A stretch of DNA of 64,000 nt. Source: Actinomycetota bacterium. Its GTDB lineage: Bacteria; Actinomycetota; Geothermincolia; Fen-727; Anoxymicrobiaceae. Within the stretch, counting starts at the first letter, position 1. Every line of letters begins with the position of its first letter. The notes below the pieces were generated by a model. The model was not told the origin of the DNA. It saw only the letters and a list, made by a program, of their open reading frames with translations, and made no database searches. Positions 14,891 through 41,029 of the stretch are shown one piece after another. The position numbers and the translations under genes were made by a program. The stretch spans positions 33,700 to 97,699 of the forward strand of contig JAHJCO010000041.1 in NCBI GenBank assembly GCA_018831265.1, written 5' to 3'.

Positions 14891-14951
14891 TGAAGGTCAG
14901 TGGTATCCTACCGGCGGAGGCCCGCCGGACCGCCGAGAAACGGGAAAGGGA

Positions 14952-15485: not shown

Positions 15486-15508
15486 AAGCCGGCTCGTTAG
15501 AGACTATT

Positions 15509-15573: not shown

Positions 15574-15642
15574 CTGGGGTGGGGGTGATTCGCTGAAGCG
15601 AGTGACTTGAATCCCGCCTGACCCCGATTCGAGTCAGACTCC

Positions 15643-16815: not shown

Positions 16816-16830
16816 ACTCTCCTTATGAGT

Positions 16831-18369: not shown

Positions 18370-18557
18370 GTCACTCCCCGCCCGAGCCGATAACAGATGA
18401 GTCGTGTGGCTATTCTCTTCCCACCCGGGGGACAACGCAAGGCCGCCGGCCCTTGTGCTACACAGGCAGCCATTAGCGTTAGAATGGTGCAAAAGGGTCA
18501 GGCACTTTTGCACGAGTCGAGGAACAGCCCCTGGAAGAAGACGGGAGGGTCCCTGCG

Positions 18558-20831: not shown

Positions 20832-20854
20832 CGCCGGCATCCTGCCGACTAAGA

Positions 20855-20950
20855 TCGGGGTCAGGCACGATTCAAGTCACAAGCTGATTGAGCCCGGCCT
20901 CTCAGGCCGGGATCTGACTCAGTTTGGGGTCAGGCACCATTCAATTCACT
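20855..20950. repeat. composite intergenic repeat: GGGGTCAGGCACGATTCAAGTCA - GATTGAGCCCGGCCTCTCAGGCCGGGA (hairpin) - GGGGTCAGGCACCATTCAATTCA
   Basis: Units recur at 27567-27650, 28003-28045 (reverse complement), 42748-42800, 46640-46665 and 23706-23760 (variant), always intergenic. Confidence 0.75.
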
Positions 20951-21030
20951 CGTAAAGAATCGGGCACCGGGGTCGTCTACCGGTTAAAGGACGCACCAGC
21001 TCGAACCGAATAACTGGTAGAGGGCCGAAA

Positions 21031-23712
21031 ATGAAGGCTGGAACAGTGGCGGTGGCGCGGATAGCGCTCCTCTTCGTCGTCCTGGCGGTGATGGGGACGG
21101 TGCCCGCGCGCGCGGCAGGCAGTACGGGCGGGGATGCGCAGACCTACTACGTGTCCCCGTCCGGCCTCGACTCCAATCCGGGGACGCTCGACAAGCCCTT
21201 CAAGACACCTGGTTACGCCTCAAAGCAGATCCAGGCGGGCGATACCCTCATCATCCAGGGCGGCCGGTACGTGCTCTCCACCTTCTACGACGACATGATC
21301 ACCCCCCCGACCGGGACCGCTACCGCGCCGATAATCATCAAGGGGGAGGAAGGAAACCGCCCCGTGCTCGCCGGGCGCGACAACCTCTTCTCGGCGGTGG
21401 ATATCGGGGGGACCAGCTACATAACCATCGAGAACCTGGAGATAACCTCCGACAACGGGGCGCTGTTCCGGGGAGGTATCGCCGGGTCGAGCGGGCCGGT
21501 CGATCACCTGACGCTGAAAGATCTCTATATCCACCATATAGACGAGGGAGCGATGGACTTCGCGGACCTCTCGGCCGCGATCATCCAGGGCTGCGTGATG
21601 TCGTACTGCGGGTTCGGCTGCCTGGGCGGGCCCGTGGGCCAGCAGGGGGGATGGCGCGACGTCACCGTGCGCGGCTGCACTCTCTCCTACTCGGGGCACT
21701 ACTACCAGGGCGGCCCGGGGCCGAGCCCCTACGACCGGCCGGACGGGTTCGGGGTCGAGCCCTCCGAGGGGCCCATTGAGATCGTGGACACGGTCGCCGA
21801 GCACAACAGGGGCGACGGGCTGGACTCCAAGTGCAGGAACACCCATATCCACGAGTGCGTGGTCGCGAACAACTCCTGCGACGGGGTGAAGCTCTGGGGC
21901 GACGGCAGCCGGGTCGAGAACACGCTCGTCTACGGCACGGGCGACGGAGTGGGCGGCGCCTCTCCCTGGGCGGGGCTGGTCATCGGCACCGAGCAGGAGG
22001 GCGCGGACTTCGAGATAGTGAACTGCGCCATTGCCGACAACCCCGAGCGGGAGGCGTACCCGATGTACGTCGAGTACGGGGGGGCGGCCAACATCAGCGT
22101 CCTGTTCCGCAACAACATCGTCGCCGACGGCTACGGGGCGCCGTACTTCGCGCCCGAGGCCGACCTCACGCTCGACCACTGCATCCTCTACAGCCCGGAC
22201 CACCCCGACAACTCGCTGGAGGCGAACGGGAAGACCTACAGCGCCGACGAGCTGGAGGCCGGGGCGGTCGGGGAGGGAGTCCTGTGCGACGACCCGAAGT
22301 TCCTGCAGCCTGCCTGGGGCTCGGCCGGTGATTACCACCTGGAGGCGGGAAGCCCGGCAATCGACTCCGGGTCGTCGGACGGCGCTCCGGCCATCGACCT
22401 GGACGGTGCGGCCCGACCGTTCGGCGCGGGGTACGACATCGGCCCCTACGAGTACGGGGCTTTGAGGCCGGTCACGGGAGAGAGGACCTGGGGGACCGGC
22501 GCTCCGGGGGTCACGCAGCCCGGGGTCACCTGGTACCTGGCCGAGGGCTGCACCGCCGGAGGGTTCGAGACCTGGGTCCTGGTGCAGAATCCGAATAGCA
22601 CGCCCGCAACCGTGGACATCACCTACATGACCGGGGAGGGGGAGAAGCCCGGGCCCCGCGTCACCCTCCCGCCGGACTCGAGGGCGACGGTGAACGCGGC
22701 CGACACGGTGGGACAGGCCTGGGAGGTCTCGGCGAAGGCGTCCTCCAACGTACCGGTGGTTGTGGAGCGCGCCATGTACTGGGGCGGCCGGACCGGGGCC
22801 CACGGCTCGACGGGGGTGAGCGGGCCGGCAACGGACTGGTACCTGGCCGAGGGCTGTACCGCCGGCGGCTTCGAGACCTGGGTGCTCCTGCAGAACCCCG
22901 GAAGCGTCGAAGCCAACGCACAGCTCACTTTCATGACGGATACCGGACAGGTAACGGGCCCTTTAGTGGTATTGCCCCCGGGCACGCGCCGGACGGTGAA
23001 CGTCGCGGAGACGGTGGGCGAGGCCTGGAACGTTTCCACCGGGGTTGACTCCGATGAGCCGGTCGTCGCCGAGCGGGCGATGTACTGGAACGGGCGCGCG
23101 GGCGGCCACGACTCGGTGGGGGTGACGGCGGCCTCGAAGACCTGGTACCTCGCCGAGGGCTCCACCGGGGGCACGTTCGAGACCTGGCTTCTGCTGCAGA
23201 ACCCGGGAGACGTGCAGGCAAACGCGCAGGTGACCTTCATGACGGACGCCGGGCCGGTCACCGGCCCTTCGGTGGGGTTGCCCCCGGGCACGCGCCGGAC
23301 GGTCAACGTCGCGGAGACGGTGGGGGCGCAGTGGAGCGTATCCACCGAGGTGTCGTCAGACCAGCAGGTCGTCGCGGAGCGGGCGGTCTACTGGGACGGG
23401 CGGCGTGAGGGCCACGACTCGGCCGGGGTAACCTCGCGAGGCAAGACCTGGTATGTAGCCGAGGGCTGCACGGGCCAGGGTTTTCAGACCTGGATACTGG
23501 TACAGAACCCGGGCACGCAGAACGCCACGGTGAGCCTGGAGTACATGACGGGTAGCCGACAGGTGACCGGTCCCACGCTCATCCTCGGCCCCCGGACTCG
23601 CCGCACGGTGAACGTCGCCGACACCTGCCCTGGCGAATGGAGCGTCTCCACGAAGGTCACCTCCAGCCACGACATCACCGTCGAACGCGCCGTGTACGGC
23701 GTATCCCCTTGA
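21031..23712 (+). CDS. secreted protein: right-handed parallel beta-helix (pectate-lyase/DUF1565-like) head + 4 tandem 'WYLAEG...QNP...ERAMY' modules
   Basis: Signal peptide; YYVSPSGLDSNPGTLDKPFKT... and NNSCDGVKL... coils indicate a beta-helix fold, followed by four clear module repeats. Confidence 0.8.
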   Translation: MKAGTVAVARIALLFVVLAVMGTVPARAAGSTGGDAQTYYVSPSGLDSNPGTLDKPFKTPGYASKQIQAGDTLIIQGGRYVLSTFYDDMITPPTGTATAPIIIKGEEGNRPVLAGRDNLFSAVDIGGTSYITIENLEITSDNGALFRGGIAGSSGPVDHLTLKDLYIHHIDEGAMDFADLSAAIIQGCVMSYCGFGCLGGPVGQQGGWRDVTVRGCTLSYSGHYYQGGPGPSPYDRPDGFGVEPSEGPIEIVDTVAEHNRGDGLDSKCRNTHIHECVVANNSCDGVKLWGDGSRVENTLVYGTGDGVGGASPWAGLVIGTEQEGADFEIVNCAIADNPEREAYPMYVEYGGAANISVLFRNNIVADGYGAPYFAPEADLTLDHCILYSPDHPDNSLEANGKTYSADELEAGAVGEGVLCDDPKFLQPAWGSAGDYHLEAGSPAIDSGSSDGAPAIDLDGAARPFGAGYDIGPYEYGALRPVTGERTWGTGAPGVTQPGVTWYLAEGCTAGGFETWVLVQNPNSTPATVDITYMTGEGEKPGPRVTLPPDSRATVNAADTVGQAWEVSAKASSNVPVVVERAMYWGGRTGAHGSTGVSGPATDWYLAEGCTAGGFETWVLLQNPGSVEANAQLTFMTDTGQVTGPLVVLPPGTRRTVNVAETVGEAWNVSTGVDSDEPVVAERAMYWNGRAGGHDSVGVTAASKTWYLAEGSTGGTFETWLLLQNPGDVQANAQVTFMTDAGPVTGPSVGLPPGTRRTVNVAETVGAQWSVSTEVSSDQQVVAERAVYWDGRREGHDSAGVTSRGKTWYVAEGCTGQGFQTWILVQNPGTQNATVSLEYMTGSRQVTGPTLILGPRTRRTVNVADTCPGEWSVSTKVTSSHDITVERAVYGVSP

Positions 23713-27538: not shown

Positions 27539-27566
27539 AACGGTACTATACGGCGCGAGAGGGTGA

Positions 27567-27650
27567 CTGGGATAGGGGTCAGGCGGGAGTCTATTCATAG
27601 ACTCCGTGATTCGACTCCCGCCTGACCCCGGTTTGAGTCGGACGAACGGA
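27567..27650. repeat. 17-bp inverted repeat GGGGTCAGGCGGGAGTC ... GACTCCCGCCTGACCCC flanking 21 bp (member of the GGGGTCAGGC repeat family)
   Basis: Read directly; intergenic between E1 alpha and the DUF2769 gene. Confidence 0.7.
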
Positions 27651-27678
27651 TCATGCCCGAACCGTCGGCGTCTACGGG

Positions 27679-27900
27679 CTACTGCGCCGCTCCCATCTCG
27701 CAGTAGAAGGAGTCTCCCAGGCTGAACTCGCTGTATATCGGACAGGTCGCGCATACACAGCTGACCTTCTCGAACTCACAGGTCGCCTTGCCCTTGGCAC
27801 AGAAGAACCCTTCCATCTTCTCCTTCATGCACTGGTTGTGGGTCGGACACGTCATGCAGATGCACTTCATCATGTTTTCCTGGGTGTCAGGTACGGGCAT
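27679..27900 (-). CDS. small cysteine-rich protein, DUF2769-like
   Basis: 73 aa with 12 Cys in the pattern MMKCICMTCP...C..E..FC..GK..C......C.CATCP...E....FYCE, which matches my recollection of DUF2769. Confidence 0.55.
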   Translation of the reverse strand: MPVPDTQENMMKCICMTCPTHNQCMKEKMEGFFCAKGKATCEFEKVSCVCATCPIYSEFSLGDSFYCEMGAAQ

Positions 27901-28041
27901 GTGTCACCTCCGTTAACGGGCTTCCAGGGTAAGGAAGCGGGTAACACTAGACTACGTCCGAAGCGTCATGATTCCTGCGCGCCGGCCTCAGGTTCGATCC
28001 ACCGAGATTGTGAATTGAATCGTGCCTGACCCCGGTTTTAG

Positions 28042-28836
28042 TCAGGCGACGTCCCTGCGCTGGAAGGCCCACAGGGCTCCCGCGAAGCAGGCCAGGCCGA
28101 ACAGGCAGGGCACGAGCACGTTCCTGGCGGGCAGGCTGGACTTCTGCAGCACCTCGAGCGGCTGGTAGTACTTGAAGATGCTGACCCACCCGATGAACTC
28201 TACGCTCTTCCAGTAGGACGCCGCGAAGTTCACGAGGTAGAAGAGCAGGGTCAGCCCCGCCGCTGCCATAGCCGCCGCGCCCGGGTCCTTGAGCAGGGCC
28301 GAGAACAGCATCGAGTAGCCGGCGATGGCGATCATCAGGGAGACTGCGGGCAGGATAAAGATAGCGAAGCGCCCGTAGTCGGAGCCAACCCCGAAGACGG
28401 CCGCCCAGCCGATGAGGCTACCTACCGTCACCAGCACGAACCCCACGATCGCGGCGAGCAGGAGGCCGGCCTGCACGCTCATCAGCCGCCATCGCTGGAC
28501 CGGCTGCGATAGTAGGAACTCCAGGGTCCCGTCCTTGAGCTCGCCTGCGACCATGCGCCTTGCCATGGCGATGACGAACGCCGCGACCAGTATCACCCAC
28601 ATGAGGCTCAGGAACTGTAGCGTTACGTAGTTGTTGAACGTGTCCAGGTTGAAGCTGCTGACCCCGAAGAGCTTGACGAAAGCCTTCGGCATCTGTTTCG
28701 CGTAGTCCGTCTTCATCTTGCCGACGGTCGGGTAGATGGCCGCTAGCAGCAGAGAGTACAGGACGATCACGCCGGCGAATATCGCGGCCATCCGCCAGCG
28801 TTCCTTGAGCGTCTTGAGGACGAGGCTCCAGGTCAA
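28042..28836 (-). CDS. ABC-2 type transporter permease
   Basis: 264 aa, 6 TM helices. Translationally coupled (4-nt overlap) to the upstream ATPase. Confidence 0.7.
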   Translation of the reverse strand: MTWSLVLKTLKERWRMAAIFAGVIVLYSLLLAAIYPTVGKMKTDYAKQMPKAFVKLFGVSSFNLDTFNNYVTLQFLSLMWVILVAAFVIAMARRMVAGELKDGTLEFLLSQPVQRWRLMSVQAGLLLAAIVGFVLVTVGSLIGWAAVFGVGSDYGRFAIFILPAVSLMIAIAGYSMLFSALLKDPGAAAMAAAGLTLLFYLVNFAASYWKSVEFIGWVSIFKYYQPLEVLQKSSLPARNVLVPCLFGLACFAGALWAFQRRDVA

Positions 28837-29732
28837 CGCGTCTCGCCCCCCTCCCGGCCGTAGAACTCCAGGAAGGCGTCCTCCAGGCTCGCGTGCCCTA
28901 TACTCAGGTCGAGCAGCTCCCTGCCGGTCAGGACCCCGAGCAGCGAGTTGAGGTCACCGCGGAACTTGAGCTGTATCCGGTTGCCGGCGCGCTCGAAGCC
29001 GCTGACCCCCTCGACGCGGTCGATGCCGTCCGGCGGGTCGGCGGCGTAGATGACCTCCACGTTGCGCAGGTGCTTGCCGCGGAGGTCCTCGATGCGCTCG
29101 GTACCCACCAGGGTACCCGCCCTGATGATGCCGACCCGGTCGGCCAGCCGCTCGACCTCGGGGAGGTTGTGTGACGAGAACAGGACCGTGGTGCCGCCCT
29201 CACGCCGCTCGTTGAGTATCTCGTAGAGGACGTGCTGGGTGATCGGGTCGAGCCCGTTGGTGGGCTCGTCCATTATAAGCAGCGGGGGGTCCTTCATGAG
29301 GGCGAGAACGATGGCCAGCTTCTGCTTCATGCCCCGTGAGTAGCCCTCCACTTTGCGGTCAAGGTCCAGCTCCAGGCGCGCGGCCAGCGCGCGGCCGGAA
29401 GCCTCCCGGCCGCCGTCGAAGCTGTCCACAAAGCGCACCAACTCTTCCCCGGTCATGCGCGGGTAGAGGGCAGGCTCGCCGGGCAGGTACCCCACCAGCC
29501 GCTTGACATCGACGCTCTTCTGCCAGGCGTCCAATCCCTTGACCGAGGCGCTGCCGCGGTTGGGCTTGAGCATCCCCATGATGAGGCGGATGGTGGTGGT
29601 CTTGCCCGCGCCGTTGGGGCCGAGGAAGCCGAACAGCTCGCCCTGGAAGACCTCCAGGTCGAGGTCCTGGACCCCGACGACCTTCCCGTAGTATTTGGTC
29701 AGGCCCTCGGTATGTATGACTGTCTCTGGCAT
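28833..29732 (-). CDS. ABC transporter ATP-binding protein
   Basis: Walker A GPNGAGKTT, signature YSRGMKQKLAIV and Walker B LLIMDEPTNGLD. Start set to ATG 29732 (MPETVIHTEGL...); the ORF table extends further upstream. Confidence 0.9.
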   Translation of the reverse strand: MPETVIHTEGLTKYYGKVVGVQDLDLEVFQGELFGFLGPNGAGKTTTIRLIMGMLKPNRGSASVKGLDAWQKSVDVKRLVGYLPGEPALYPRMTGEELVRFVDSFDGGREASGRALAARLELDLDRKVEGYSRGMKQKLAIVLALMKDPPLLIMDEPTNGLDPITQHVLYEILNERREGGTTVLFSSHNLPEVERLADRVGIIRAGTLVGTERIEDLRGKHLRNVEVIYAADPPDGIDRVEGVSGFERAGNRIQLKFRGDLNSLLGVLTGRELLDLSIGHASLEDAFLEFYGREGGETR

Positions 29733-29824
29733 GCCCCTGAGCCTATCAGATTTTCGCATCGGGGTCAGACGCCGATGCGGAAGGCGGTCTCGAAACGTCA
29801 TACTGTTGGTGGAGGTAGAGAAGA

Positions 29825-30730
29825 GTGATTGTATCGGCGAGCTACCGCACCGACATACCGGCCTACTACGGCGAGTGGTTCATTAACAGGCTGGCCGCCG
29901 GGTACTGCATGGTCGCCAACCCGTACGGCGGGCGGCCGTACCGGGTGCCCCTGCGAAGGGAGGAAGGTGTCGAGGCGTTCGTCTTCTGGACCAGGGACCC
30001 GGAGCCGTTCATCGACTGCCTGCGGGTCGTGGCCCGTGAGCACGGTTTCCCGTTCGTCGTCCAATACACAATCATCCCGTACCCCGAGGCGCTGGACCGT
30101 GAGGTCACCGACCCCGAGCGCGCCGCCGCCTGCGTGCACCTCCTGCGCGACGAGTACGGACCGAGGGCCATGGTCTGGCGCTACGATCCCATCGTCTTCT
30201 CGTCGCTCACCCCTCCGGAGTGGCACCTGGAGCGCTTCGAGACCCTGGCCTCTTCGCTGGAGGGCGCAACAGACGAGGTGGTCGTCTCGTTCGCGCAGGT
30301 GTACCGCAAGACCGAGCGCAACCTGGACGCGGCCGCCCGCGAGCACGGCTTCACCTGGGAGGACCCGCCCGACGATGCGAAGCGGCGATTTCTCCTCGAG
30401 CTTTCCAGCACCGCCTCCGGACACGGGATGCGCCTCAGTATCTGCGCCCAGCCCCGGCTACTGGCCCAGGGAGTCGAACCCGCCTCATGTATAAACCCTG
30501 GGCGGCTCGGGGACGTGGCCCGCCACCTTGGCATCGAGCCCGCGACCGTTCGCGCCAGGCGAAAGCCTCACCGCGAGGACTGCGGCTGCTGGGAGAGCCG
30601 CGACATAGGCGCCTACCACACCTGCCCCCACGGCTGCACCTACTGCTACGCGGTGAACGACCGGGAGCGGGCTGCCCACCGTTTCGCCGCCCACGACCCG
30701 GAAGGCGAGTTCCTCCTGCCTCCAGGCTGA
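29825..30730 (+). CDS. DUF1848-family protein (C-terminal Cys cluster)
   Basis: The N-terminus MIVSASYRTDIPAYYGEWFINRL matches my recollection of DUF1848 N-termini. C-terminal CGCW...CPHGCTYCYA. GTG start with GGAGG 9 nt upstream. Confidence 0.55.
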   Translation: MIVSASYRTDIPAYYGEWFINRLAAGYCMVANPYGGRPYRVPLRREEGVEAFVFWTRDPEPFIDCLRVVAREHGFPFVVQYTIIPYPEALDREVTDPERAAACVHLLRDEYGPRAMVWRYDPIVFSSLTPPEWHLERFETLASSLEGATDEVVVSFAQVYRKTERNLDAAAREHGFTWEDPPDDAKRRFLLELSSTASGHGMRLSICAQPRLLAQGVEPASCINPGRLGDVARHLGIEPATVRARRKPHREDCGCWESRDIGAYHTCPHGCTYCYAVNDRERAAHRFAAHDPEGEFLLPPG

Positions 30731-30838
30731 TTCAACATCAATAGCACCACCGATGTGGCCGCTGATTTGACCTTGACTAATAATAACGTTAATATGTCAT
30801 TATTATTGCATAATATTGACATGCTAAGGATAGTGATA

Positions 30839-32131
30839 ATGGACCTAATCACGTTCAATCCCTGGTGGAGGGACGGCAGGGTGTCTGCGGCTCTCGTTGG
30901 CAGGAAACGGCGGTTGCTGGCCGGGCTCTCGGAATATATGGGCCTGCGGCAGATGCTCATCCTCTACGGCCTGCGGCGGGTCGGTAAGACGACCACCATG
31001 TTCCAGTTGATCGATGGCCTCCTGGAGCGCGAAGAGGCAGATCCGTACCACATCCTCTACTTCTCTTTCGACGAAGAGAAGGCCGATATCAAGGAGATTC
31101 TGGCGGCTTACGAGAGGCAGATCATCAGAGAAGACCTGCCCCGCGACAGGAAGACCTACCTGTTCCTCGACGAGGTGCAGAAGCTCGACGACTGGCCGGA
31201 CAAGGTCAAAGTCATCTATGACATGTACCCCAGCGTGAAGCTCTGCCTCTCGGGTTCGGCCGCCATAGCCATCACCAAAGGGGTGAAGGAAAGCCTGGCG
31301 GGAAGGTTCTTCGAGACCATGATCGAACCCCTCGACTTCGACGAATACCTGGAGTTCTCAGGGGATGACATCGACCGCGAGCAGGAGAGGGTCTTTGAGC
31401 TGCGAATACGCCGCAGGTTCGAGGAGTTCATGGCGAACGGGGGCTTCATCGAGGCGCTGGAGCTTTCCGATTCCCACAGAAACAGGTACTTCAAGGAGGG
31501 CCTTCTAGAAAGAGTCATCTACCGCGACCTGCCGGACAGCTTCCATATCAACGCGCCCGACCTTCTGTACAGGTGCATGCGCGTCTGCGCCGAGAAGCCG
31601 GGTATGCTCCTCGACTACAGTAGCCTGGGGCGGGACCTCGGTCACGACCAGCGGACCATTGCAGCATACTTCTCTCACCTCGAATACGCTCTGCTGGCGA
31701 ACAAGCTCTACAATTACTCGCCCAATCTCCTCACGAGCGAGAAGAAGATGAAGAAGGTCTATCTATCGAGTACGGCGTTCAGCGTAGCGCTCTCCCCGCC
31801 GGTCGGCCGCCCGGAGCTTATCGAGCAGTTCTTCGCGAACGTCCTCAAGGCCCGGTTCTTCTCGAGGACCCCCCAGAGGGACGAGGTGGACCTGGTCCTG
31901 TCAGGCGATGGGGAGGTGGTCCCGATCGAGGTCAAGATCAGGTCCGAAGTGAAGAAGCGGGACGCCACGCCCCTGTTCAAGTTCCTGCACAGGTACAAAG
32001 CCGCCAGGGGGTACATGATCTCGGACGGTACCGAGACCGTGTTCTCGGATGGCGAGAAGGAGGTAGAGGTCATTCCCTACTGGATGTACTGGACGTTGAT
32101 GGACAGACTTGGTGGTATTCTCGACAGGTGA
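30839..32131 (+). CDS. AAA+ ATPase (AAA_14-like) fused to a DUF4143/PD-(D/E)xK-like C-terminal domain
   Basis: Walker A GLRRVGKTT and Walker B LFLDEVQ. C-terminal EVDLVL...VVPIEVK looks like a D...ExK nuclease motif. Start is ATG 30839 with AAGGA upstream. The gene and its upstream region are markedly AT-rich relative to the window. Confidence 0.8.
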   Translation: MDLITFNPWWRDGRVSAALVGRKRRLLAGLSEYMGLRQMLILYGLRRVGKTTTMFQLIDGLLEREEADPYHILYFSFDEEKADIKEILAAYERQIIREDLPRDRKTYLFLDEVQKLDDWPDKVKVIYDMYPSVKLCLSGSAAIAITKGVKESLAGRFFETMIEPLDFDEYLEFSGDDIDREQERVFELRIRRRFEEFMANGGFIEALELSDSHRNRYFKEGLLERVIYRDLPDSFHINAPDLLYRCMRVCAEKPGMLLDYSSLGRDLGHDQRTIAAYFSHLEYALLANKLYNYSPNLLTSEKKMKKVYLSSTAFSVALSPPVGRPELIEQFFANVLKARFFSRTPQRDEVDLVLSGDGEVVPIEVKIRSEVKKRDATPLFKFLHRYKAARGYMISDGTETVFSDGEKEVEVIPYWMYWTLMDRLGGILDR

Positions 32132-32275
32132 CAGGACATCGGTTATTCGATGACGGTTTTTTCAGGAGGGCAGAACCCTTGGACTCTGTTCAACCGGCTA
32201 GCTTGTTATCGGGTCTTTCGTAACTGAACCGAGCTCGGTGAATACCGTTGGTAGTCTGCCGCAGAATGTAGCCAG

Positions 32276-32842
32276 CTACTGTGCAGGTCTGCGTATCACT
32301 GCCCTCTCGGCATATTCCACTGTAGGCTCGGCCTCAAATTCCTCGATAGCCTGGTCCTCGTCCTTGCCTTCTGTCAGATGTACCGAGACGCCAAACCTAT
32401 CAGCACCAGTTCCAATGTTCCAGATACATGTCACAGAAGCCTGGTGCCTCGCCACGACCTCGCGAGCGGTCTCTTCAGATACGCCTTCTTTGAATTGGAC
32501 GATCACTTCCCCCTCCTGAAAATCACCTTCCGGCGTCGTGGTCGGAGGCGCAGGGGTCGTCTCAGGTGTCGTAGGAACCGTATCTACAGTTGGGGGAACG
32601 TCTTCTGAGGCCTGGGGCTCTTCCGCCTGGCCGCTAGTTGACTCGTCGCCCTGCGCGCTATTACTGGTGGAAGGGAGAGAAGTTGGGAGAGACGGCAACG
32701 AGAAAGATAGGCCGCCTCCGGATTCCTTCTTGTCGGAAGGCTTGACCTGGCTGCAGCCACCGATGATTAAGCTAATCGCCAAGAGCGCGAATGCAATGCA
32801 CACACATATGACCGAAGTAGACTTCTTTTGCCACATCCTCAT
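32276..32842 (-). CDS. lipoprotein with low-complexity Pro/Thr linker and a C-terminal peptidase-inhibitor-I9 (subtilisin propeptide)-like domain
   Basis: Lipobox LIIGGCS. C-terminus GEVIVQFKEGVSEETAREVVARHQASV...DEDQAIEEFEAEPTVEYAE resembles I9 prodomains. Lower GC than surrounding genes. Confidence 0.5.
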   Translation of the reverse strand: MRMWQKKSTSVICVCIAFALLAISLIIGGCSQVKPSDKKESGGGLSFSLPSLPTSLPSTSNSAQGDESTSGQAEEPQASEDVPPTVDTVPTTPETTPAPPTTTPEGDFQEGEVIVQFKEGVSEETAREVVARHQASVTCIWNIGTGADRFGVSVHLTEGKDEDQAIEEFEAEPTVEYAERAVIRRPAQ

Positions 32843-33061
32843 TGAGGCATTCTCCCCGTTTGCTCGAGGTTACTATAAAGCACGTTACAGGCCCGGTCCA
32901 ACTCGTACCACGCTTGTCGGCCCACGACCCTGAGTGAGTTCATCCTGCCTCCTCCTTGGCAGGCGTGACCTGGTCTCTTTGATTCATTTGCTTCCTTCCG
33001 TGTTACAGTTGCTTGATATGCTTGATCAGTTGCTTCAGCGAGGAAGGATTGGACGAGAGCG

Positions 33062-33256
33062 TTGAAGGTGCGTGATATCATCAGGATACTTGAAAAGGAC
33101 GGGTGGTTTCTGGTGACGACCAGGGGAAGTCATCGACAGTACAAGCATCAGATGAAGCCGGGCAGGGTTACGATAGCCGGTCACTTGAACGACGATCTGT
33201 CTCCGGGCACATTGGACAGCATATACAAGCAGGCGGGCTTGAAGGAGAGCCGATAG
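33062..33256 (+). CDS. hicA: HicA-family toxin (mRNA interferase)
   Basis: 64 aa; ...ILEKDGWFLVTTRGSHRQYKH...GRVTIAGH...LSPGTLDSIYKQAGL fits HicA/YcfA. Confidence 0.8.
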   Translation: MKVRDIIRILEKDGWFLVTTRGSHRQYKHQMKPGRVTIAGHLNDDLSPGTLDSIYKQAGLKESR

Positions 33257-33257
33257 G

Positions 33258-33485
33258 ATGTTCCGCTTTCTAGTCGTGATCGAGAAGGCAAACGGGAACT
33301 ACTCCGCATATTCTCCGGACCTGCCCGGATGCGTAGCATCCGGGGCGACCGTGAAAGAGGCGGAACGAAATATGCACGAGGCGATCGAGCTCCACGTGAA
33401 GGGGCTGATCGAAGACGGCCAGCCGGTTCCCGTCTCCGAATCCTTCGCGGAGTATTTCGCCATACCGGAGGATATCGCGCAGTAG
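33258..33485 (+). CDS. hicB: HicB-family antitoxin (UPF0150)
   Basis: 75 aa; ...VIEKANGNYSAYSPDLPGCVASGATVKEAERNMHEAIELHV is the HicB N-domain. Separated by 1 nt from hicA. Confidence 0.75.
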   Translation: MFRFLVVIEKANGNYSAYSPDLPGCVASGATVKEAERNMHEAIELHVKGLIEDGQPVPVSESFAEYFAIPEDIAQ

Positions 33486-33511
33486 TGTCCCATTGACCAC
33501 CCGGAGGTCTC

Positions 33512-35851
33512 ATGCTCCGCAAAACGATAATTGCGCTGGGGGTGGCCGTTCTCTCGGTCGCCTTCGCGCCCATGGCACTCGCCTCGAGCGGCTGGACCGG
33601 GGGGCACGACGTGGTCGGGTGCACTCAGGCCGCCACCACCTGGTACTTCGCGGAGGGGACGACCCGCACCGGGTTCAACGAGTGGGTCTGCCTGTACAAC
33701 CCCGCGGACAACGATACCAGCGCGACCTTCACCTATATGCTCGAGGACGGCAGCACCGAAGTGAAGACGTACGAGCTGCGCGCCGCGAGCCGCACCACCG
33801 TGGATGTGAACCTCGAGCTGGGGCCCGGGCACGACGTTTCGATAAAGGTCGATTCGGCAGCCCCGGTGGTCGCCGAGCGTCCCATGTATTTCCGCTATAA
33901 CGGCATGTGGACCGGTGGTCACGACGTGGTGGGGACCAACGGACCCCTGCCGGAGTGGTTCTTCGCCGAGGGCACTTGCCGTCCGGGCTTCGATCCCTAC
34001 ATCTGCATCCAGAACCCGGGCTCTGGAGACGCCGCCGTGCTCGTCACCTACATGCTGGGCGACGGCACCACGCGCGAGGAGAACCTGACCGTCGGTGCGC
34101 ACAGCCGTTCGACGGTCGTCCCCAGGCAACTGCTGGGCGAGGGCGACGACGCCGCGCACGACTTCTCCGCGCACGTGGAGACGACCAACGGCGCGCTTAT
34201 CGTGGCCGAGCGCCCGATGTACTTCAACTACAAGGGCGGCTGGAGCGGCGGGCACGACGTGGTGGGCGCGACCGCCCCATCGACCGCGTTCCACTTCGCC
34301 GAGGGGACGTGCCGCCCCGGCTTCGATCCTTACCTCTGCATCCAGAACCCGAGCGACAAGACCTCCCGCCTCCGGATCACCTACATGCTGGGTAGCGGCG
34401 CTACCCAGGCCCAGTCCCTGGCCATCAGCCCCCACTCGCGGTCAACGGTCGTCGTCAAGCAGGTGCTGGGAGAGTTCGACGACCCGGCCCACGACTTCTC
34501 TGCCAGCGTGGAGACGACCGACGGGAGCAAGGTCATCGCCGAGCGGCCGATGTACTTCAATTACAAGGGGGCCTGGACGGGCGGGCACGACGTGGTCGGG
34601 GCTACCTCTCCCGCCCAGTCGTTCTCCTTCGCCGAGGGCACCTGCCGTCCAGGCTTCGACGCCTACCTGTGCATCCAGAACCCCGGGCCCGAGACCTCCG
34701 CCATCAATATCACGTACGTGCTGGGGGACGGGACCAGCCGGCAGCAGGCGCTCGACGTCGGCCCCAACAGCCGGGCGACCGTCTTCGTCAAGGACGTGCT
34801 GGGGGAGGGCAACGACCCGGCGCACGACTTCTCCGCCACCGTCGCCACGACCAACGGCACGGAGATAATCGCCGAGCGGCCCATCTACTACGACTACTAC
34901 AGCACCGCGAAATGGTCGATGGCCGTGCTCGGGGACGTGAACCTCGGTGGCGACGTGTCGCCGACTCTGGCCGCCAACGGCTTCGGGTACGTGTGGACCG
35001 GGGTCGGCCCGTATATCTCGGAGGCGACCCTGGGATTCGCGAACCTGGAGTGCACCATGTCATACCAGGGCTCGCCGGTCCCCGGGAAGACGTTCACCTT
35101 CGAGGGCGACCCAAACGCTCTGCCCGCGATGCGTGACGCAGGGGTTGACGTCGTTTCGCAGGCCAACAACCACGCCCGGGACTACGGGGCGGTGGCACTG
35201 CTGGACTGCCTGGGTTACCTGGACGGGTTCGGCATCGCTCACTGCGGCGCGGGGGCCGACTACGAGAGTGCACACGTCCCCGCGTACCTCGACGCCGAAG
35301 GACTGCGCGTGGCATTCCTGGCGTACGACGACATCGGTACCGCGGGATGGTACGCCGACGCCGGCTACCCGGGGGTCTGCGACGCGACCGATACGGGCAG
35401 GCTCATCGCCGACGTCCAGGCGGCGAGCCTCAACGCCGACTTCGTGGTGGTCTCCTTCCACTGGGGCAACGAGAAGGAGTACACCCCGACGGCGCGCCAG
35501 GCGAACCTCGCGCGGCTGTCAATTGACTGCGGCGCGGACATCGTGCTTGGCCATCACCCGCACGTGGTGCAGGGGATGGAGATATACAACGGCGGACTGA
35601 TCTGCTATTCGCTGGGCAACTTTGTGTTCAACCCTGGCAGCGACGCCGGGCACTACACGATACTGACCCGGATATCACTCGACTCGCGTGGGTTCCTGCA
35701 GGCCGAGTCGCACCCGGTCCACATAGACAGCTGCCGACCGACCATCATGGGGGGCGAGGCCGGGGCCGCCTGGATTAACCAGGTGGCGGCCATAGTGCAG
35801 GGGCTGGGGACACCCGCCCGGGTGCAGGACAACGTGATGTACGTACCGTGA
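33512..35851 (+). CDS. secreted protein: 4 tandem 'WYFAEG...QNP...ERPMY' modules + C-terminal CapA/PGA_cap-like metallophosphoesterase domain
   Basis: Signal peptide, then four ~110-aa modules, then LGNFVFNPGSD...HWGNEKEYTPT...VLGHHPHVVQG, typical of CapA-family domains. Confidence 0.85.
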   Translation: MLRKTIIALGVAVLSVAFAPMALASSGWTGGHDVVGCTQAATTWYFAEGTTRTGFNEWVCLYNPADNDTSATFTYMLEDGSTEVKTYELRAASRTTVDVNLELGPGHDVSIKVDSAAPVVAERPMYFRYNGMWTGGHDVVGTNGPLPEWFFAEGTCRPGFDPYICIQNPGSGDAAVLVTYMLGDGTTREENLTVGAHSRSTVVPRQLLGEGDDAAHDFSAHVETTNGALIVAERPMYFNYKGGWSGGHDVVGATAPSTAFHFAEGTCRPGFDPYLCIQNPSDKTSRLRITYMLGSGATQAQSLAISPHSRSTVVVKQVLGEFDDPAHDFSASVETTDGSKVIAERPMYFNYKGAWTGGHDVVGATSPAQSFSFAEGTCRPGFDAYLCIQNPGPETSAINITYVLGDGTSRQQALDVGPNSRATVFVKDVLGEGNDPAHDFSATVATTNGTEIIAERPIYYDYYSTAKWSMAVLGDVNLGGDVSPTLAANGFGYVWTGVGPYISEATLGFANLECTMSYQGSPVPGKTFTFEGDPNALPAMRDAGVDVVSQANNHARDYGAVALLDCLGYLDGFGIAHCGAGADYESAHVPAYLDAEGLRVAFLAYDDIGTAGWYADAGYPGVCDATDTGRLIADVQAASLNADFVVVSFHWGNEKEYTPTARQANLARLSIDCGADIVLGHHPHVVQGMEIYNGGLICYSLGNFVFNPGSDAGHYTILTRISLDSRGFLQAESHPVHIDSCRPTIMGGEAGAAWINQVAAIVQGLGTPARVQDNVMYVP

Positions 35852-35867
35852 GACCCCCTCACCCCTA

Positions 35868-35893
35868 CCCTCTTCCCCCAGGGGAGAGGGGGA
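35868..35893. terminator. G/C-run hairpin CCCTCTTCCCCC-AGG-GGAGAGGGGG
   Basis: 17 nt after the CapA-fusion stop; same hairpin family as 10029 and 15509. Confidence 0.45.
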
Positions 35894-35915
35894 AAGGAAG
35901 CCGGGACTTCTACGG

Positions 35916-37037
35916 ATGAGCGGAATGATGCCCAACCCGGAGACGGTCGAGATCCAGACCGCGGACGGGGTCACGCTGCGGTGCCGGCGATACAGGAAGC
36001 CCGGCGCCAGGGCGGTCGTCTGCGGCCACGGGCTGGCCTCCAGTGCCTACGCCTTCGACCTCCCGCTGTACGGGTTCAACATCGCGAGGGTGCTCTACGG
36101 CCTGGGGTACGAGGTCTGGCTGGTGAACTTCCGCGGCGCGGGGCACCCGCCCTGGCGAAGCGACGACGGAGGTTGGGGCGGGGCCGGCGACGAGCTGGGA
36201 GTCTTCGACCTGCCCGCGGTCATCGAGCATGTGTACCGGGAGACCGGCCGGCCGGTCTTCTACACGGGACACTCGTTCGGAGGTATGTCCATCTACGTCT
36301 ACCTGCAGGGAGCGGCGATGGAGCCCGGTGACCCCGAGCGCAAGGTCCACCGCGATCCCGCCGAGGCGAGAAGGCGCAACCGGATGGTCGCGGGCGCGCT
36401 GACCGTCGGGAGCATGTCGGTCCTGGTGGACGACCCCCGGCCCCCGCTGCTGGAGCGTATAAGCAGGTTTCCGCGCGTCAGGAGAGTGTTGAAGCGTTTC
36501 GAGGACTGGCTGATCAGGCGCGCGTTTCGAAAGCCCGGCCTGGCGATCGGCAGGATGTCCCGCCGGCTCGGGTTCCGGCATCCACTGCTGGCCGGTCTCG
36601 TAATGTCCAGCCCGTTCCTGGACCTGTACATGGTCTCGCGCAACATGGGGTTCGAGGCGTGCAGGCTGTTCGGGATATGGGCGGGCGGTGACGTCGCTGT
36701 CCGCGAGGTGGCACAGACGGTCCGGGACATCAGGACCGGTGAGTTCTCCTCCTACGCGCCCGAGGGCCACGAGCCCTTCGACTACGGCGCCGGCATGGGA
36801 GAGATAACCACCCCGCTGGTCGCAGCCGCGGGTACCGAGGACTTCATCCGACCGTTACACGTGAAGGGCGGGGTCATCGACCGGATCTCCTCGGAGCGCA
36901 AACGGTTCATAGAGATGAAGGGGTACGGGCACGTGGACATGCTCTATCACCTGCCGTATGCCGAGATTATGGCATTCCTGGAGGAGGGTGCCGGGCAACA
37001 GGACGCCCCCACCCCCACCGACGGCGAAGAAGGTTAG
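35916..37037 (+). CDS. alpha/beta-fold hydrolase
   Basis: Nucleophile elbow YTGHSFGG and an HGxxSS-type oxyanion region; 373 aa. Confidence 0.8.
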   Translation: MSGMMPNPETVEIQTADGVTLRCRRYRKPGARAVVCGHGLASSAYAFDLPLYGFNIARVLYGLGYEVWLVNFRGAGHPPWRSDDGGWGGAGDELGVFDLPAVIEHVYRETGRPVFYTGHSFGGMSIYVYLQGAAMEPGDPERKVHRDPAEARRRNRMVAGALTVGSMSVLVDDPRPPLLERISRFPRVRRVLKRFEDWLIRRAFRKPGLAIGRMSRRLGFRHPLLAGLVMSSPFLDLYMVSRNMGFEACRLFGIWAGGDVAVREVAQTVRDIRTGEFSSYAPEGHEPFDYGAGMGEITTPLVAAAGTEDFIRPLHVKGGVIDRISSERKRFIEMKGYGHVDMLYHLPYAEIMAFLEEGAGQQDAPTPTDGEEG

Positions 37038-37044
37038 GGGAAGG

Positions 37045-38028
37045 ATGGATATCCTCGTCTGCCCGGCCTGTCGCGGAGAGCTGGCCGATACCTGTGATGC
37101 CGGGTCGTACGCCTGCATCTCCTGCGGCCGTTCGTACCCCGTGTTCGAGGGACACGCCAGCTTCGTCGCCGCGGACGAGATGGGGGAGTTCGCCCGCTGG
37201 CAGATGGACATCTACGACGGGAACCGTCCCGACCTCGCACCGCCCGACTACTCGGACCTCGAGCGGGTTCGCTCTCACAACGAGGGCTCGGTGGAGGTCA
37301 CGCGGGCCTGCGGGGCGCTCTCCCCGAACTGGAAGGGGATGAAGTCCCGCGAGGTCGTGGACCGTCTCGGGCCGCAACCGGGCGAGCTGGTACTGGACGT
37401 CGGGTGCGGGCTCGGTACCCTCCTGGACACCATGGCCGCCGCCTACGGCACCATGGGGGTCGGCATCGACCTGGGACACGCGGGCCTCAAGGCCGCTATC
37501 GCCTGCAACACCTCCGGGCACGGCTTCCACGAGGCTGACGCCCTGAACCTGCCGTTCCGCGACGGCGCCTTCGACCTCGTGGTGTCCTACGACGTGATTG
37601 AGCACGTGGACGATCCGGCCAGGTTCGTCTCCGAGATGGCCCGCGCCCTCCGCCCGGGCGGCAGGCTACTCGTCTACACCCCGTCCGCGCGTGACCGCTG
37701 GACCTGGCACTGGTGGGAGCGCCTCCTGCTCCGCGGGCGTTACAACCTCGGGATGGACAACCTGGCGGGCCACGACCCGGACAGGTTCCTCGAGCCTGGA
37801 AGGCTGGCCGCGCTACTCGAGGAAGCGGGCCTGGAGCGCGTCGGCACCGAGTCGTTCCACTCGCTGTTCACGCTCATATTTGACGAGGTCTATCCCGGGT
37901 TCTTCTACCGGGTGTTGAGGCGCGCGAGGTTCGTCCGGCCCGTATTCAGGATGCTCGAGAACGCGGATTCTCCGCTGAGCTCGTGGGGCTACGGAAACGG
38001 GTTCTTCGCCTGGGGGTGGAAGTCGTGA
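37045..38028 (+). CDS. class I SAM-dependent methyltransferase with N-terminal Trm112-like zinc ribbon
   Basis: MDILVCPACRG...CISCGRSYPVFEGH zinc ribbon and VLDVGCGLGTLL SAM motif. Start ATG 37045 with GGGGAAGG upstream; the ORF-table start at 36958 overlaps the previous gene. Confidence 0.85.
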   Translation: MDILVCPACRGELADTCDAGSYACISCGRSYPVFEGHASFVAADEMGEFARWQMDIYDGNRPDLAPPDYSDLERVRSHNEGSVEVTRACGALSPNWKGMKSREVVDRLGPQPGELVLDVGCGLGTLLDTMAAAYGTMGVGIDLGHAGLKAAIACNTSGHGFHEADALNLPFRDGAFDLVVSYDVIEHVDDPARFVSEMARALRPGGRLLVYTPSARDRWTWHWWERLLLRGRYNLGMDNLAGHDPDRFLEPGRLAALLEEAGLERVGTESFHSLFTLIFDEVYPGFFYRVLRRARFVRPVFRMLENADSPLSSWGYGNGFFAWGWKS

Positions 38029-38035
38029 TGCCGCT

Positions 38036-38242
38036 ATGAGCCTGCTCGGTCGACTCGTGAATCTGTCGCGAGACCTGGTACGCTGGCGCGACCTGGACTA
38101 TACGTCCAAACAGGTGTTGCTACGGAAGCTCTTCAGCATCCCATTCCTGGCGATGCTGCCGGTGATGCTTATCGCCGGGTTACTCCTGCGGCTCGTCAGA
38201 GGCCGGCTCGACGAAGCACTCGGCCAGCGGTATCTCGCATAG
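38036..38242 (+). CDS. possible small membrane protein (68 aa)
   Basis: ATG lies 4 nt after the methyltransferase stop and there is one predicted TM helix, but it overlaps the 3' end of the convergent gamma-CA gene by ~60 nt. Weak call. Confidence 0.25.
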   Translation: MSLLGRLVNLSRDLVRWRDLDYTSKQVLLRKLFSIPFLAMLPVMLIAGLLLRLVRGRLDEALGQRYLA

Positions 38243-38749
38243 ACCCTCGTAGCAGCGGCCGGGGAGCGTCTGGTACAGGCGGGTGCCGTACCAGGTGGCT
38301 TGAGCCATCGGCTCACCGACCTCCCTGACCACGCGCGCGGGGACGCCCACGACCAGCGACCCGGGTGGTATCTCGGTGCCGGGCAGGACGACCGCCCCGG
38401 CCCCTATCACCGACCCTTCGCCGACTACCGACCTGTCCTGCACTATCGCTCCCATGCCCACCATGACGTGCTCCTCCAGGGTGCAGTTGTGCAGGATCGC
38501 CCCGTGCCCCACGTGCGAGTTCTCGGCGAGCCTCATTACCGCCCCGAACCCCGCGTGGATGACCACGTTCTCCTGTATGTTGGAGCCGTCGCCCACGATC
38601 AGCTCGCCCCAGTCGGCGCGCAGGCAGGCCCCGGCCGAGACCAGGCAGTTCTCGCCTATGGTCACGCTCCCGATCAACACGGCGGTATCGTGGATGAAGG
38701 AAGTCCTGCCCACACGGGGCCTGCGGCCCTCGAACTCGTACAGCGCCAT
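38180..38749 (-). CDS. gamma-class carbonic anhydrase family / hexapeptide-repeat (LbH) protein
   Basis: Hexapeptide repeats and conserved His ligands (...VIHAGFG...SHVGHGAILHNCTL...), CaiE/PaaY/YrdA-like. Confidence 0.85.
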   Translation of the reverse strand: MALYEFEGRRPRVGRTSFIHDTAVLIGSVTIGENCLVSAGACLRADWGELIVGDGSNIQENVVIHAGFGAVMRLAENSHVGHGAILHNCTLEEHVMVGMGAIVQDRSVVGEGSVIGAGAVVLPGTEIPPGSLVVGVPARVVREVGEPMAQATWYGTRLYQTLPGRCYEGLCEIPLAECFVEPASDEPQE

Positions 38750-38775
38750 CTGAACTCCTCCGGTCTGAACGGTCT

Positions 38776-38804
38776 ATGAAAGAATACCTCAAACCATTTC
38801 TTGC
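38776..38804. repeat. degenerate copy of the GAAAGAAWACCTCAGACCATTTCTTTC element
   Basis: ATGAAAGAATACCTCAAACCATTTCTTGC, located in the promoter region shared by the gamma-CA and MerR genes. Confidence 0.5.
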
Positions 38805-38920
38805 ACGGACGCAACCGGGGCCGATCCGTATTAGAATCGCATGCGAAAAAACTCGGGCGAACACCTTGACTCTCCCCCCGGGGGAGGGCCGAAGATGGCG
38901 GCGGGAAGGGAGGTGAGACG

Positions 38921-39739
38921 GTGGACGGGCTGTTCAGCATAGGGGAGTTCTCCAGGATGTCCTGGCTGACCGTGAAGGCGCTGCGCCTGTACGACGAGGA
39001 AGGGATACTCAGGCCTGGCTTCGTGGACCCGGCGACGGGGTACCGGTACTACAGCAGCACGCAGCTGCCCGAGGCCAGGACCATTCGGATGTTGCGCTCG
39101 CTGGACATGCCGCTGGAGGAGGTCCGCGAGTTCCTCAAGGAGACGTCCCCGGGCGCCAGGACGAAGCTCCTGGAGGGACACCGGGAACAGCTCGAGAACA
39201 GGCTGGAGTCGTACCGCGCCATCATCTCATCGATAGACGACCTAACCGAGAGGAAAGGAGACGCCATGGAAAGGGAAGTGGAGGTAAAGGACCTCGCGAA
39301 CCTGCCGGTACTGTCCATCAGGTTCAAGACCTCGATGGCCGGGATAGGCGATGCAGTGGGGGTCGCCTTCGGCAAGATATTCGGGTTCCTGGGGCAGACG
39401 GGCACGCCGCCAGCGGGGCCGCCGTTCGCCCTGTACTACGACATGGAGATGAAAGAAGAGGACATCGACATGGAGATCTGCGTGCCGGTTTCCGGAGAGA
39501 TGGAAGGCGCGGGCGAGGTCGTGGGTCGCGTGGTCCCGGGCGGTGCCGCGGTCTCCACCATGCACGCGGGACCCTACGACCAGGTGGGCGGCGCCTACGA
39601 GGCGCTTATGACCTGGATGAAGGATAACGGCTACGAGCCCGCCGGACCCGCCCGCGAGGTATACCTGGTGGGCCCGGACAAGGTGCAGGACCCGGCGGAG
39701 TACCGCACGGAGGTGCTCATCCCGGCAAAGAAGGCATAG
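38921..39739 (+). CDS. MerR-family transcriptional regulator with C-terminal GyrI-like effector-binding domain (BmrR/TipA type)
   Basis: N-terminal MerR HTH (FSIGEFSRMSWLTVKALRLYDEEGIL) and coiled-coil linker, then a GyrI-like domain. Confidence 0.85.
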   Translation: MDGLFSIGEFSRMSWLTVKALRLYDEEGILRPGFVDPATGYRYYSSTQLPEARTIRMLRSLDMPLEEVREFLKETSPGARTKLLEGHREQLENRLESYRAIISSIDDLTERKGDAMEREVEVKDLANLPVLSIRFKTSMAGIGDAVGVAFGKIFGFLGQTGTPPAGPPFALYYDMEMKEEDIDMEICVPVSGEMEGAGEVVGRVVPGGAAVSTMHAGPYDQVGGAYEALMTWMKDNGYEPAGPAREVYLVGPDKVQDPAEYRTEVLIPAKKA

Positions 39740-39815
39740 ACAGCGGACTCAGTGAGCATTCACCTCAACCATTATCTCTCAACTGAGAAACAATGGTTGA
39801 GGTGAATTCTCGTCG

Positions 39816-40925: not shown

Positions 40926-41029
40926 CCTCATCACCTCAAGCTCTTGAATCCTCCCCGTACACACAGATTATCGGTCAAACGTGCGCGGTTCCATACCTCT
41001 GAGCAAAAAGGGGTCAAACCTGAGATTTT

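Follow-up and report, generated by a model that had tools for sequence, protein, structure and literature searches.

A low-GC patch in an Anoxymicrobiaceae genome as a probable mosaic of a PDC-S01-type ATPase-nuclease cassette, a lipoprotein gene and a hicAB pair

The candidate defence family PDC-S01 was nominated through its embedding in defence contexts. It is reported to rank fourth among the commonest prokaryotic defence candidates and is pending validation (PMC12988326). The DUF4143/COG1373 family is a listed PD-(D/E)XK family (PMC3424549), and in Thermus an AAA_14/DUF4143 gene is reported to be 6.6-fold up when plasmid DNA is present (PMC4406477). Here we describe a gene of the PDC-S01 type that lies, together with a lipoprotein gene and a hicAB toxin-antitoxin pair, in a patch of low GC (guanine plus cytosine) content in a bacterium of the Anoxymicrobiaceae (Actinomycetota, Geothermincolia). 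The analysed stretch, called the window below, is 64,000 nucleotides (nt) long (assembly GCA_018831265.1, contig JAHJCO010000041.1, positions 33,700 to 97,699 of the forward strand). A first-pass annotation had proposed that the patch, from about 30730 to 33500, is a horizontally acquired defence or addiction module. We consider it probable that the patch is instead a lineage-specific mosaic put together in at least two separate events, and not a single functional module. Its three pieces, the ATPase cassette, the lipoprotein gene and hicAB, are all of already-known kinds, and the patch is an ordinary variable region, not a new system. The indel in the following list is relative to contig JAZDFZ010000019.1 of another Actinomycetota metagenome-assembled genome, referred to as the sister genome.

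29825-30730, plus strand: DUF1848 gene (Pfam)
30680..30723, plus strand: direct-repeat copy 1 from the repeat search, formed by the in-frame 3' terminus of the DUF1848 gene, whose stop codon is 30728-30730
30716..33256, no strand: indel, 2541 bp here and 50 bp in the sister genome, holding the ATPase, lipoprotein and hicA genes
30839..32131, plus strand: gene for a PDC-S01-type protein of 430 amino acids with AAA+ ATPase, helical, winged-helix and PD-(D/E)xK nuclease parts
32276..32842, minus strand: gene for a lipoprotein of 188 amino acids with a signal peptide and lipobox (IIGGC, Cys30), a linker rich in Ser, Thr and Pro and, at the C-terminus, an I9/N-pro-like domain (about residues 97-179)
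32843..32910, minus strand: region before the lipoprotein gene, with a separate promoter, TGGACC-17-TATAGT (32900-32872, promoter scan), reaching to the end of the stretch homologous to contig L167
32911..32952, plus strand: direct-repeat copy 2, a decayed relic of the DUF1848 3' end that reads RLSAHDPE and then a stop
33062..33256, plus strand: hicA toxin gene, 64 amino acids, TTG start, G22 and H24 present (Pfam HicA_toxin, E 3.8e-22, 78.6 bits, cut-off 27)
33258..33485, plus strand: hicB antitoxin gene, 75 amino acids (Pfam HicB_lk_antitox, E 1e-13, 51.9 bits, cut-off 27)
33512-35851, plus strand: gene with DUF5719 repeats and PGA_cap (Pfam)

The drop in GC content at about 30730 and the recovery near 33500 are confirmed by sliding GC and by equal-length windows. 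The GC content of 30731-33485 is 0.558, against a mean of 0.654 (standard deviation 0.019, minimum 0.588) for equal-length windows outside it in the 64 kb. This is the lowest-GC stretch of the window, about 5 standard deviations under the mean. The profile is 0.68 at 30450-30749, 0.52-0.61 over 30600-33450 and 0.64-0.69 beyond 33450. The pieces within the patch differ in their GC content at third codon positions (GC3), for which 35 native genes of the window give a reference of 0.876±0.037. The lipoprotein gene is clearly foreign by its codon signature, with a GC3 of 0.588 (z -7.7); its relatives, in contigs of about 54% GC, have a GC3 of 0.53-0.61. The GC3 of hicA is 0.698 (z -4.8) and that of hicB is 0.743 (z -3.6). 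The ATPase gene has a GC3 of 0.832 (z -1.2), and its synonymous-codon score is also within the native range. Its overall GC content is 0.585, with 0.55 at codon position 1 and 0.35 at position 2. Since GC3 is host-like and the first two positions are low, the low GC of this gene is attributed to amino-acid composition and not to foreign codons. Deviation from native codon usage thus holds for the lipoprotein, hicA and hicB genes and fails for the ATPase gene. The differing GC3 values indicate at least three compositional histories in the patch.

By blastn, more than 20 kb of the sister genome align collinearly with the window, at 87-91% nt identity. Its positions 8182-10892 correspond to window 28011-30715, and its positions 10943-18702 to window 33257-41011, leaving 50 bp in place of window 30716-33256. 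The synteny comparison thereby bears out the patch as a lineage-specific variable stretch. The ATPase, lipoprotein and hicA genes are absent at this site in the sister genome, and hicB is kept at the same position (10944-11171, encoding a protein 83% identical to the window HicB). No hicA was found by tblastn anywhere on the sister contig. Because hicB is conserved there, the right edge of the variable part is 33256, and not 33500 as previously drawn. The DUF1848 protein and an ABC-2 exporter had been mentioned as possible members of the patch. Both genes have native GC3 and 87% nt identity to the sister genome, which places them outside it. The sister genome is the one close relative from the genome scan, and in the metagenomes no match to DUF1848 exceeded 56% identity.

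The ATPase and lipoprotein genes, about 2.2 kb, are enclosed by repeats of the DUF1848 3' end. The DUF1848 gene ends in RFAAHDPEGEFLLPPG before its stop, corresponding to the RLSAHDPE and stop of copy 2. Local alignment of 30689-30723 with 32920-32952 scores 44, against 19.2±2.5 (maximum 30) for shuffled sequences. From copy 2 it is 110 nt to hicA on one side, and on the other the lipoprotein cassette ends just short of it. This arrangement, two genes between repeats of the target, favours insertion into an older DUF1848-hicA-hicB order. It was also considered that copy 2 might belong to the lipoprotein cassette. This was ruled out, as copy 2 is not part of the DNA homologous to L167, and it aligns to the upstream DNA of L167 no better than shuffled sequences do (score 14 against 14.1±2.2). 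A DUF1848 gene adjoining the lipoprotein gene in donor-like contigs was looked for and not found. As for the route of insertion, illegitimate or end-joining capture is possible but speculative.

We propose the following history. The hicA-hicB pair would have been located between the DUF1848 and PGA_cap genes before the sister species diverged. The sister species would later have lost hicA and retained an orphan hicB. In the window lineage, about 2.2 kb would have been inserted at the DUF1848 3' end, duplicating 35-44 nt. The insert would consist of two unrelated and independently promoted genes, the PDC-S01-type cassette and a recently imported lipoprotein gene.

The first-pass annotation identified the ATPase by Walker A/B motifs and a DUF4143-type, PD-(D/E)xK-like C-terminus, and this is upheld by Pfam, alignment and structural model. 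The open reading frame (ORF) extends over 30755-32131 (plus strand, 458 amino acids); the likely true start is the ATG at 30839, matching the NCBI call of 430 amino acids. Pfam detects AAA_14 (E 5.7e-31, 107.6 bits, cut-off 27) and DUF4143 (E 3.5e-17, 63 bits, cut-off 28.1). The suggestion that this is a defence-type architecture also stands at the level of a PADLOC scan: residues 51-446 of the 458-residue ORF match the candidate-defence model PDC-S01 (PDLC04787, E 2.3e-52) over profile positions 12-406 of 412, and the match was repeated on the 430-residue form. In an alignment of 61 sequences, Walker A residues G44, G49, K50 and T52 and Walker B residues D111 and E112 are invariant. The nuclease residues D351 and E364 are also invariant, and K366 is conserved in at least 90%. 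The AlphaFold2 model (predicted local distance difference test score, pLDDT, 91; predicted template modelling score 0.90) contains an AAA+ core, helical and winged-helix-like parts (the latter at about residues 240-310) and a C-terminal domain. This last domain has the order alpha-beta-beta-beta-alpha-beta, with D351 and E364/K366 on neighbouring strands. The top Foldseek matches in the PDB are 2fna, 2qen, CED-4 and Orc1/Cdc6. The query-normalised template modelling score is about 0.4, because the C-terminal nuclease domain has no counterpart in these PDB matches. At the sequence level, no relative with E<0.01 was found in the PDB, and the match of the C-terminal region to UPF0102 (3fov) is non-significant (E 0.55). 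None of the NCBIfam families matches any protein of the patch. A phage origin of the ATPase was considered and dropped, as no relatives were found in viral contigs.

The ATPase gene forms a self-contained cassette with its own control elements.

30767..32165, plus strand: ATPase cassette comprising promoter, operator-like repeats, Shine-Dalgarno site, gene and terminator
30767..30795, plus strand: sigma-70-like promoter TTGACC-17-TAATAT (promoter scan), with its boxes at the same positions in homologous loci
30776-30789 (plus), 30794-30807 (minus) and 30809-30822 (plus): three alternating 14-nt half-sites with the consensus AATAATAATGACAT
32137..32162, plus strand: terminator-like hairpin (32137-32152) and T-run just past the ATPase stop (terminator scan)

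The half-sites make two palindromes, one centred on the -10 box and the other just downstream. The half-site pattern has 4 hits in the window against 0.31 expected, and three of the four are in the cassette promoter region. Alignment and pattern hits show the set to be kept in seven loci, down to 57% protein identity. In all seven, the promoter TTGAC-17-TAnAAT is overlapped by three half-sites, which are probably an operator as judged from this conservation. The stretch before the gene had been described as 110 bp of nearly all A/T. The 108 bp (30731-30838) separating the DUF1848 stop from the ATPase ATG are indeed AT-rich, and "nearly all" is somewhat overstated (GC 0.343). Because promoter and half-sites are shared by seven loci, we read the AT-rich stretch as a conserved promoter and operator-like element. 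No description of a promoter-to-terminator cassette with three conserved half-sites was found in the papers searched.

Nucleotide homology is limited to the cassette. In window coordinates it extends over 30767-32165 with locus L182, which includes the terminator-like hairpin, over 30767-32109 with L183 and over 30781-32112 with L083-085; the flanks of the cassette homologues are unrelated to the window. The seven homologous copies are spread over six genomic contexts.

L083-085 (Ca. Anoxymicrobium japonicum, class Geothermincolia), 86% protein identity: flanked by genes for a radical-SAM protein and a DUF234 ATPase, near dnaN
L183, 86% protein identity: tRNA-like sequence after the stop codon, truncated where the contig ends
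L182, 83% protein identity: beside an AbrB-like gene
L086, 77% protein identity: 13 nt from tRNA-Phe
L178, 61% protein identity: adjoins an ISL3 transposase fragment
L179-181, 57% protein identity: between an IS200-type transposase gene and murJ

Neither this lipoprotein gene nor hicAB neighbours the ATPase gene at any of these loci. The cassette showed no terminal repeats and no target duplications, and a search for viral copies of it found none. At L086 the tRNA-Phe gene (2297-2385) lies 13 nt from the cassette end; the sequence after the stop codon in L183 is very similar, and ARAGORN called no tRNA in it. A tRNA gene is a typical integration hotspot. At L083 8001-13621, just upstream of dnaN-recF-gyrB, three stand-alone ATPase genes are interleaved with a homoserine dehydrogenase gene. 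Two of these are AAA_14 plus DUF4143 and one is ATPase_2 plus DUF234, and the triple half-site is present only at the copy orthologous to the window gene.

Self-repression by the winged helix of the ATPase is the simplest explanation for the half-sites, because they travel with the gene and the cassette encodes one protein; if the half-sites are an operator, this winged helix would be the likeliest binder. The PDC-S01-type protein would be an ORC/Cdc6/STAND-like AAA+ ATPase with a winged helix and a C-terminal PD-(D/E)xK nuclease. It may act as an ATP-dependent DNA-binding nuclease that is tightly repressed at its own operator.

The lipoprotein with an I9-like domain, described as such at the first pass, is also upheld. 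Its N-terminus reads MRMWQKKSTSVICVCIAFALLAISLIIGGC followed by SQ, and the lipobox call is based on sequence reading and alignment. G29, C30 and S31 are invariant in three homologues, and residues 9-27 are predicted to form a helix. The C-terminal domain matches the Fervidolysin_NPro-like family PF22148 (E 4.5e-9, 37 bits against a cut-off of 21). The predicted order of secondary structure (strand 112-117, helix 123-132, strands 135-142 and 150-156, helix 162-170, strand 178-184) is propeptide-like beta-alpha-beta-beta-alpha-beta. The top Foldseek PDB match is POIA1 bound to subtilisin (1v5i_B), which is weak (E 4.8e-3), and the pLDDT of the domain is about 70-83. The public annotation covers only the last 76 amino acids (32276-32506); the 188-residue form with the signal peptide is the conserved one.

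Two homologues of the lipoprotein were found, with 65% and 43% identity, and both have a large Peptidase_S8 plus DUF5719 gene 14-32 nt downstream, in contigs of about 54% GC. By blastn, L167 353-799 corresponds to window 32909-32466 at 76.7%, that is, from near the lipoprotein stop to about 32910, with the conserved promoter included. Ahead of its lipoprotein gene, L167 also carries GGGAAAGGCCCCGTCTCCGGGGCCTTA in two copies. An S8 catalytic domain is absent from the window, where tblastn with the partner S8 protein matches DUF5719 repeats only. A remnant of an S8 gene between the ATPase and lipoprotein genes (32132-32275) was searched for and none was found. From its N-terminal sequence, the S8 partner in L167 appears to carry an N-prodomain of its own. 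Because the S8 partner is absent from the window and seems to have its own prodomain, the lipoprotein is read as a membrane-anchored inhibitor or chaperone that is orphaned here. It may act in trans on a subtilase encoded elsewhere, or it may be decaying. Its pairing with S8 subtilases elsewhere hints at a membrane-anchored inhibitor of surface subtilases of the DUF5719 type.

Several large DUF5719-repeat surface proteins are encoded in the window itself (18558-23712 and 33512-35851), one of them fused to PGA_cap. The S8 partners of the lipoprotein homologues carry repeats of this kind, up to 42% identical to window 22534-23697. The DUF5719/PGA_cap gene contains 333-nt tandem repeat units with 72-76% identity (33869-34500).

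The presence of a HicAB toxin-antitoxin pair is borne out by both Pfam families, well above their cut-offs. hicA is directly upstream of hicB in the same orientation with one base between, and both genes are intact. HicA keeps the conserved positions G22 and H24, to which studies of HicA assign a catalytic role. HicB matches its profile at positions 2-69 of 123, corresponding to the N-terminal HicB fold without the C-terminal DNA-binding domain (ribbon-helix-helix or helix-turn-helix); most close HicB relatives are 70-75 amino acids long. The family search gave 5420 hits, and identities among the best 120 are 75-83%, including proteins annotated from other phyla. In contigs L174-177, a 70%-identical HicA is encoded directly upstream of an 80%-identical HicB. 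Because these contigs carry the same pair, hicAB is regarded as co-inherited and the lone hicB of the sister genome as the result of hicA loss. In the window, an mRNA-cleaving HicA would be neutralised by HicB, and the pair may stabilise the locus.

The neighbourhood of the patch consists of metabolic and cell-surface genes, and a defence-island setting is not borne out. A PADLOC scan of the 45 window ORFs found only PDC-S01 and generic cross-hits, which do not make a defence island. The cross-hits are an ABC ATPase to mad3, mad8 and AriA, methyltransferases to mad2, and DUF1848 to RTasDUF1848. The DUF1848 protein matches the RTasDUF1848 model with E 5.6e-34; there is no reverse transcriptase nearby, and the gene is native and widely distributed. 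The protein carries the C-terminal Cys motif CPHGCTYCY. Rfam gave only sub-threshold miRNA-like hairpin hits, outside the patch.

A second indel relative to the sister genome is found at 27640-28010. It holds a small gene for a Cys-rich DUF2769 protein (27679-27900, minus strand, GC 0.55) that is absent there. It is bounded by copies of an element of about 30 nt (about 27618-27646 and 28015-28045), with a third copy at 15611-15640. In the sister genome there is one copy, at the point where the two blast segments overlap by 33 nt, and such a pattern is the classic signature of a direct-repeat-mediated deletion or insertion. The left edge of this indel coincides with the end of a very stable hairpin at 27552-27647 (-55.6 kcal/mol over 27545-27655), for which Rfam returned only sub-threshold miRNA-like matches. 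G+C-rich intergenic palindromes resembling repetitive extragenic palindromic (REP) elements are present at 15507-15542 and 35851-35890 and in L167 1-125; the one after the PGA_cap gene reads CCCCTCTCCCC...GGGGAGAGGGG. The second-lowest GC patch of the window, 58370-59215 (minus strand, GC 0.55-0.58), encodes a regulator of 281 amino acids. It combines a MerR-type helix-turn-helix (10-78) with a TetR-type N-terminal one (about 90-170), an unusual double fusion.

How did the pieces come together? The idea that the ATPase-nuclease, the lipoprotein and HicAB arrived and work together as one horizontally acquired defence or addiction module draws on their position in one contiguous low-GC stretch and on the PADLOC match of the ATPase to PDC-S01. 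Toxin-antitoxin pairs often accompany defence genes, which also counts in its favour. However, the three pieces have three codon signatures (GC3 of 0.83, 0.59 and 0.70-0.74), different partners and different neighbours elsewhere. The ATPase stands alone in six other settings, in none of which this lipoprotein or hicAB accompanies it, and the conserved partner of the lipoprotein is an S8 protease. Furthermore, hicB is common to the sister genome and the rest is not, and the genes have separate promoters, with the ATPase and lipoprotein genes convergent. We find such a module highly improbable. Of the proposed horizontal acquisition, what holds is that the patch is variable and partly foreign. 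A different history, in which the whole block from the ATPase gene to hicB is ancestral and was removed by a single 2.5-kb deletion in the sister genome with no insertion in the window lineage, seems unlikely to us, less so than one joint module. It accords with the orphan hicB, which implies that at least hicA was deleted there, and with the host-like codon usage of the ATPase gene, which fits long residence; the indel at 27640-28010 with its flanking repeats of about 30 nt shows that indels arise in the region. The lipoprotein GC3, however, equals that of the donor-like relatives, with no amelioration despite the 9-13% nt divergence of the two species. Moreover, an insertion is expected to leave a duplicated DUF1848 3' end of this kind, which a deletion in the other lineage does not account for.

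Our preference for a mosaic formed by insertion has several points to contend with. There is a single close relative, and the polarity of the indel is deduced indirectly, from the direct repeats and the unameliorated lipoprotein GC3. The 35-44-nt direct repeat is imperfect (29 matches in 35, with a 2-nt gap), and Pfam shows no integrase or transposase domain in the genes between the repeats to account for it. The 50-bp spacer of the sister genome has no scar homology to the patch (score 15 against 17.5±2.0 for shuffles). hicB is 76.5% identical at the nt level between window and sister genome, more diverged than the flanks, and in view of this divergence an independent replacement of the toxin-antitoxin locus may have occurred instead. 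The HicB family is too conserved (median identity about 77-79%) for a phylogeny to separate orthology with fast evolution of the orphan from replacement. With regard to defence, an E. coli B assay with phages T7, T5 and T4 included one PDC-S01 representative, which does not figure among the candidates that were reported to protect (bioRxiv 10.1101/2024.09.26.614923).

What the cassette does is a separate issue from how it arrived. The ATPase-nuclease probably acts in genetic conflict, either in defence against foreign DNA or in selfish persistence. That it is not a defence gene at all, and is a selfish self-regulating element using its own nuclease activity or a DNA-binding regulator, is a tentative option, which we hold for possible and somewhat doubtful. 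The tight promoter-to-terminator limits and the scatter of copies among housekeeping, tRNA, insertion sequence and toxin-antitoxin loci agree with it, as do the several paralogous ATPase genes at one Ca. Anoxymicrobium locus, the result with the PDC-S01 representative and the surroundings in the window, which are not a defence island. Against this stand the nomination of PDC-S01 through defence contexts, as one of the commonest candidates (PMC12988326), and the negative searches for viral copies of the cassette, for terminal repeats and for target duplications. A bolder form of this thought would make the PDC-S01-type gene an autonomous promoter-to-terminator cassette for a self-repressed ATPase-nuclease whose nuclease aids its own spread or retention, in a homing-like or addictive manner, with phage defence secondary or absent. 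We rate this as quite unlikely; if true, it would call for a new reading of a "candidate defence" family that is among the most abundant. The strongly conserved operator-like element provides a concrete handle on the regulation and function of the very abundant PDC-S01 ATPase-nucleases. A more general lesson is that a contiguous low-GC stretch may be a patchwork of pieces differing in age and origin, and labelling such stretches "defence modules" by proximity alone would mislead.

The locus can finally be set beside the described systems. From the set of an integrase or recombinase and a tRNA or att target that marks an integrase-mediated genomic island, the locus has only the imperfect direct repeat, and there is no tRNA gene in the 64-kb window. 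The HicAB pair is like other type II HicAB systems in its Pfam families, gene order and HicA G22/H24. It differs in that its HicB is the minimal 75-residue form without a DNA-binding domain and in that the sister genome keeps hicB alone. The C-terminal domain of the lipoprotein resembles MEROPS I9 inhibitors (POIA1) and the fervidolysin N-prodomain (PF22148), and its homologues adjoin an S8 subtilase. Unlike soluble I9 inhibitors or cis-propeptides, the window protein is a lipoprotein with a long Ser/Thr/Pro linker and no adjacent S8 gene. The AAA+ core, helical and winged-helix parts of the ATPase resemble the archaeal Walker-type ATPases SSO1545 (2fna) and PABY2304 (2qen), Orc1/Cdc6 and CED-4/Apaf-1 (STAND) with Foldseek E values of 5e-9 to 1e-7, whereas sequence identity is 12-15% and these proteins are without the C-terminal nuclease domain. 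The closest system is PDC-S01 (AAA_14 plus DUF4143, COG1373), which is likewise a single-gene fusion of an ATPase and a PD-(D/E)xK nuclease and whose model the window protein matches over nearly its full length. Nothing essential differs in the window protein; what is added here is the cassette and the three conserved half-sites for this subfamily.

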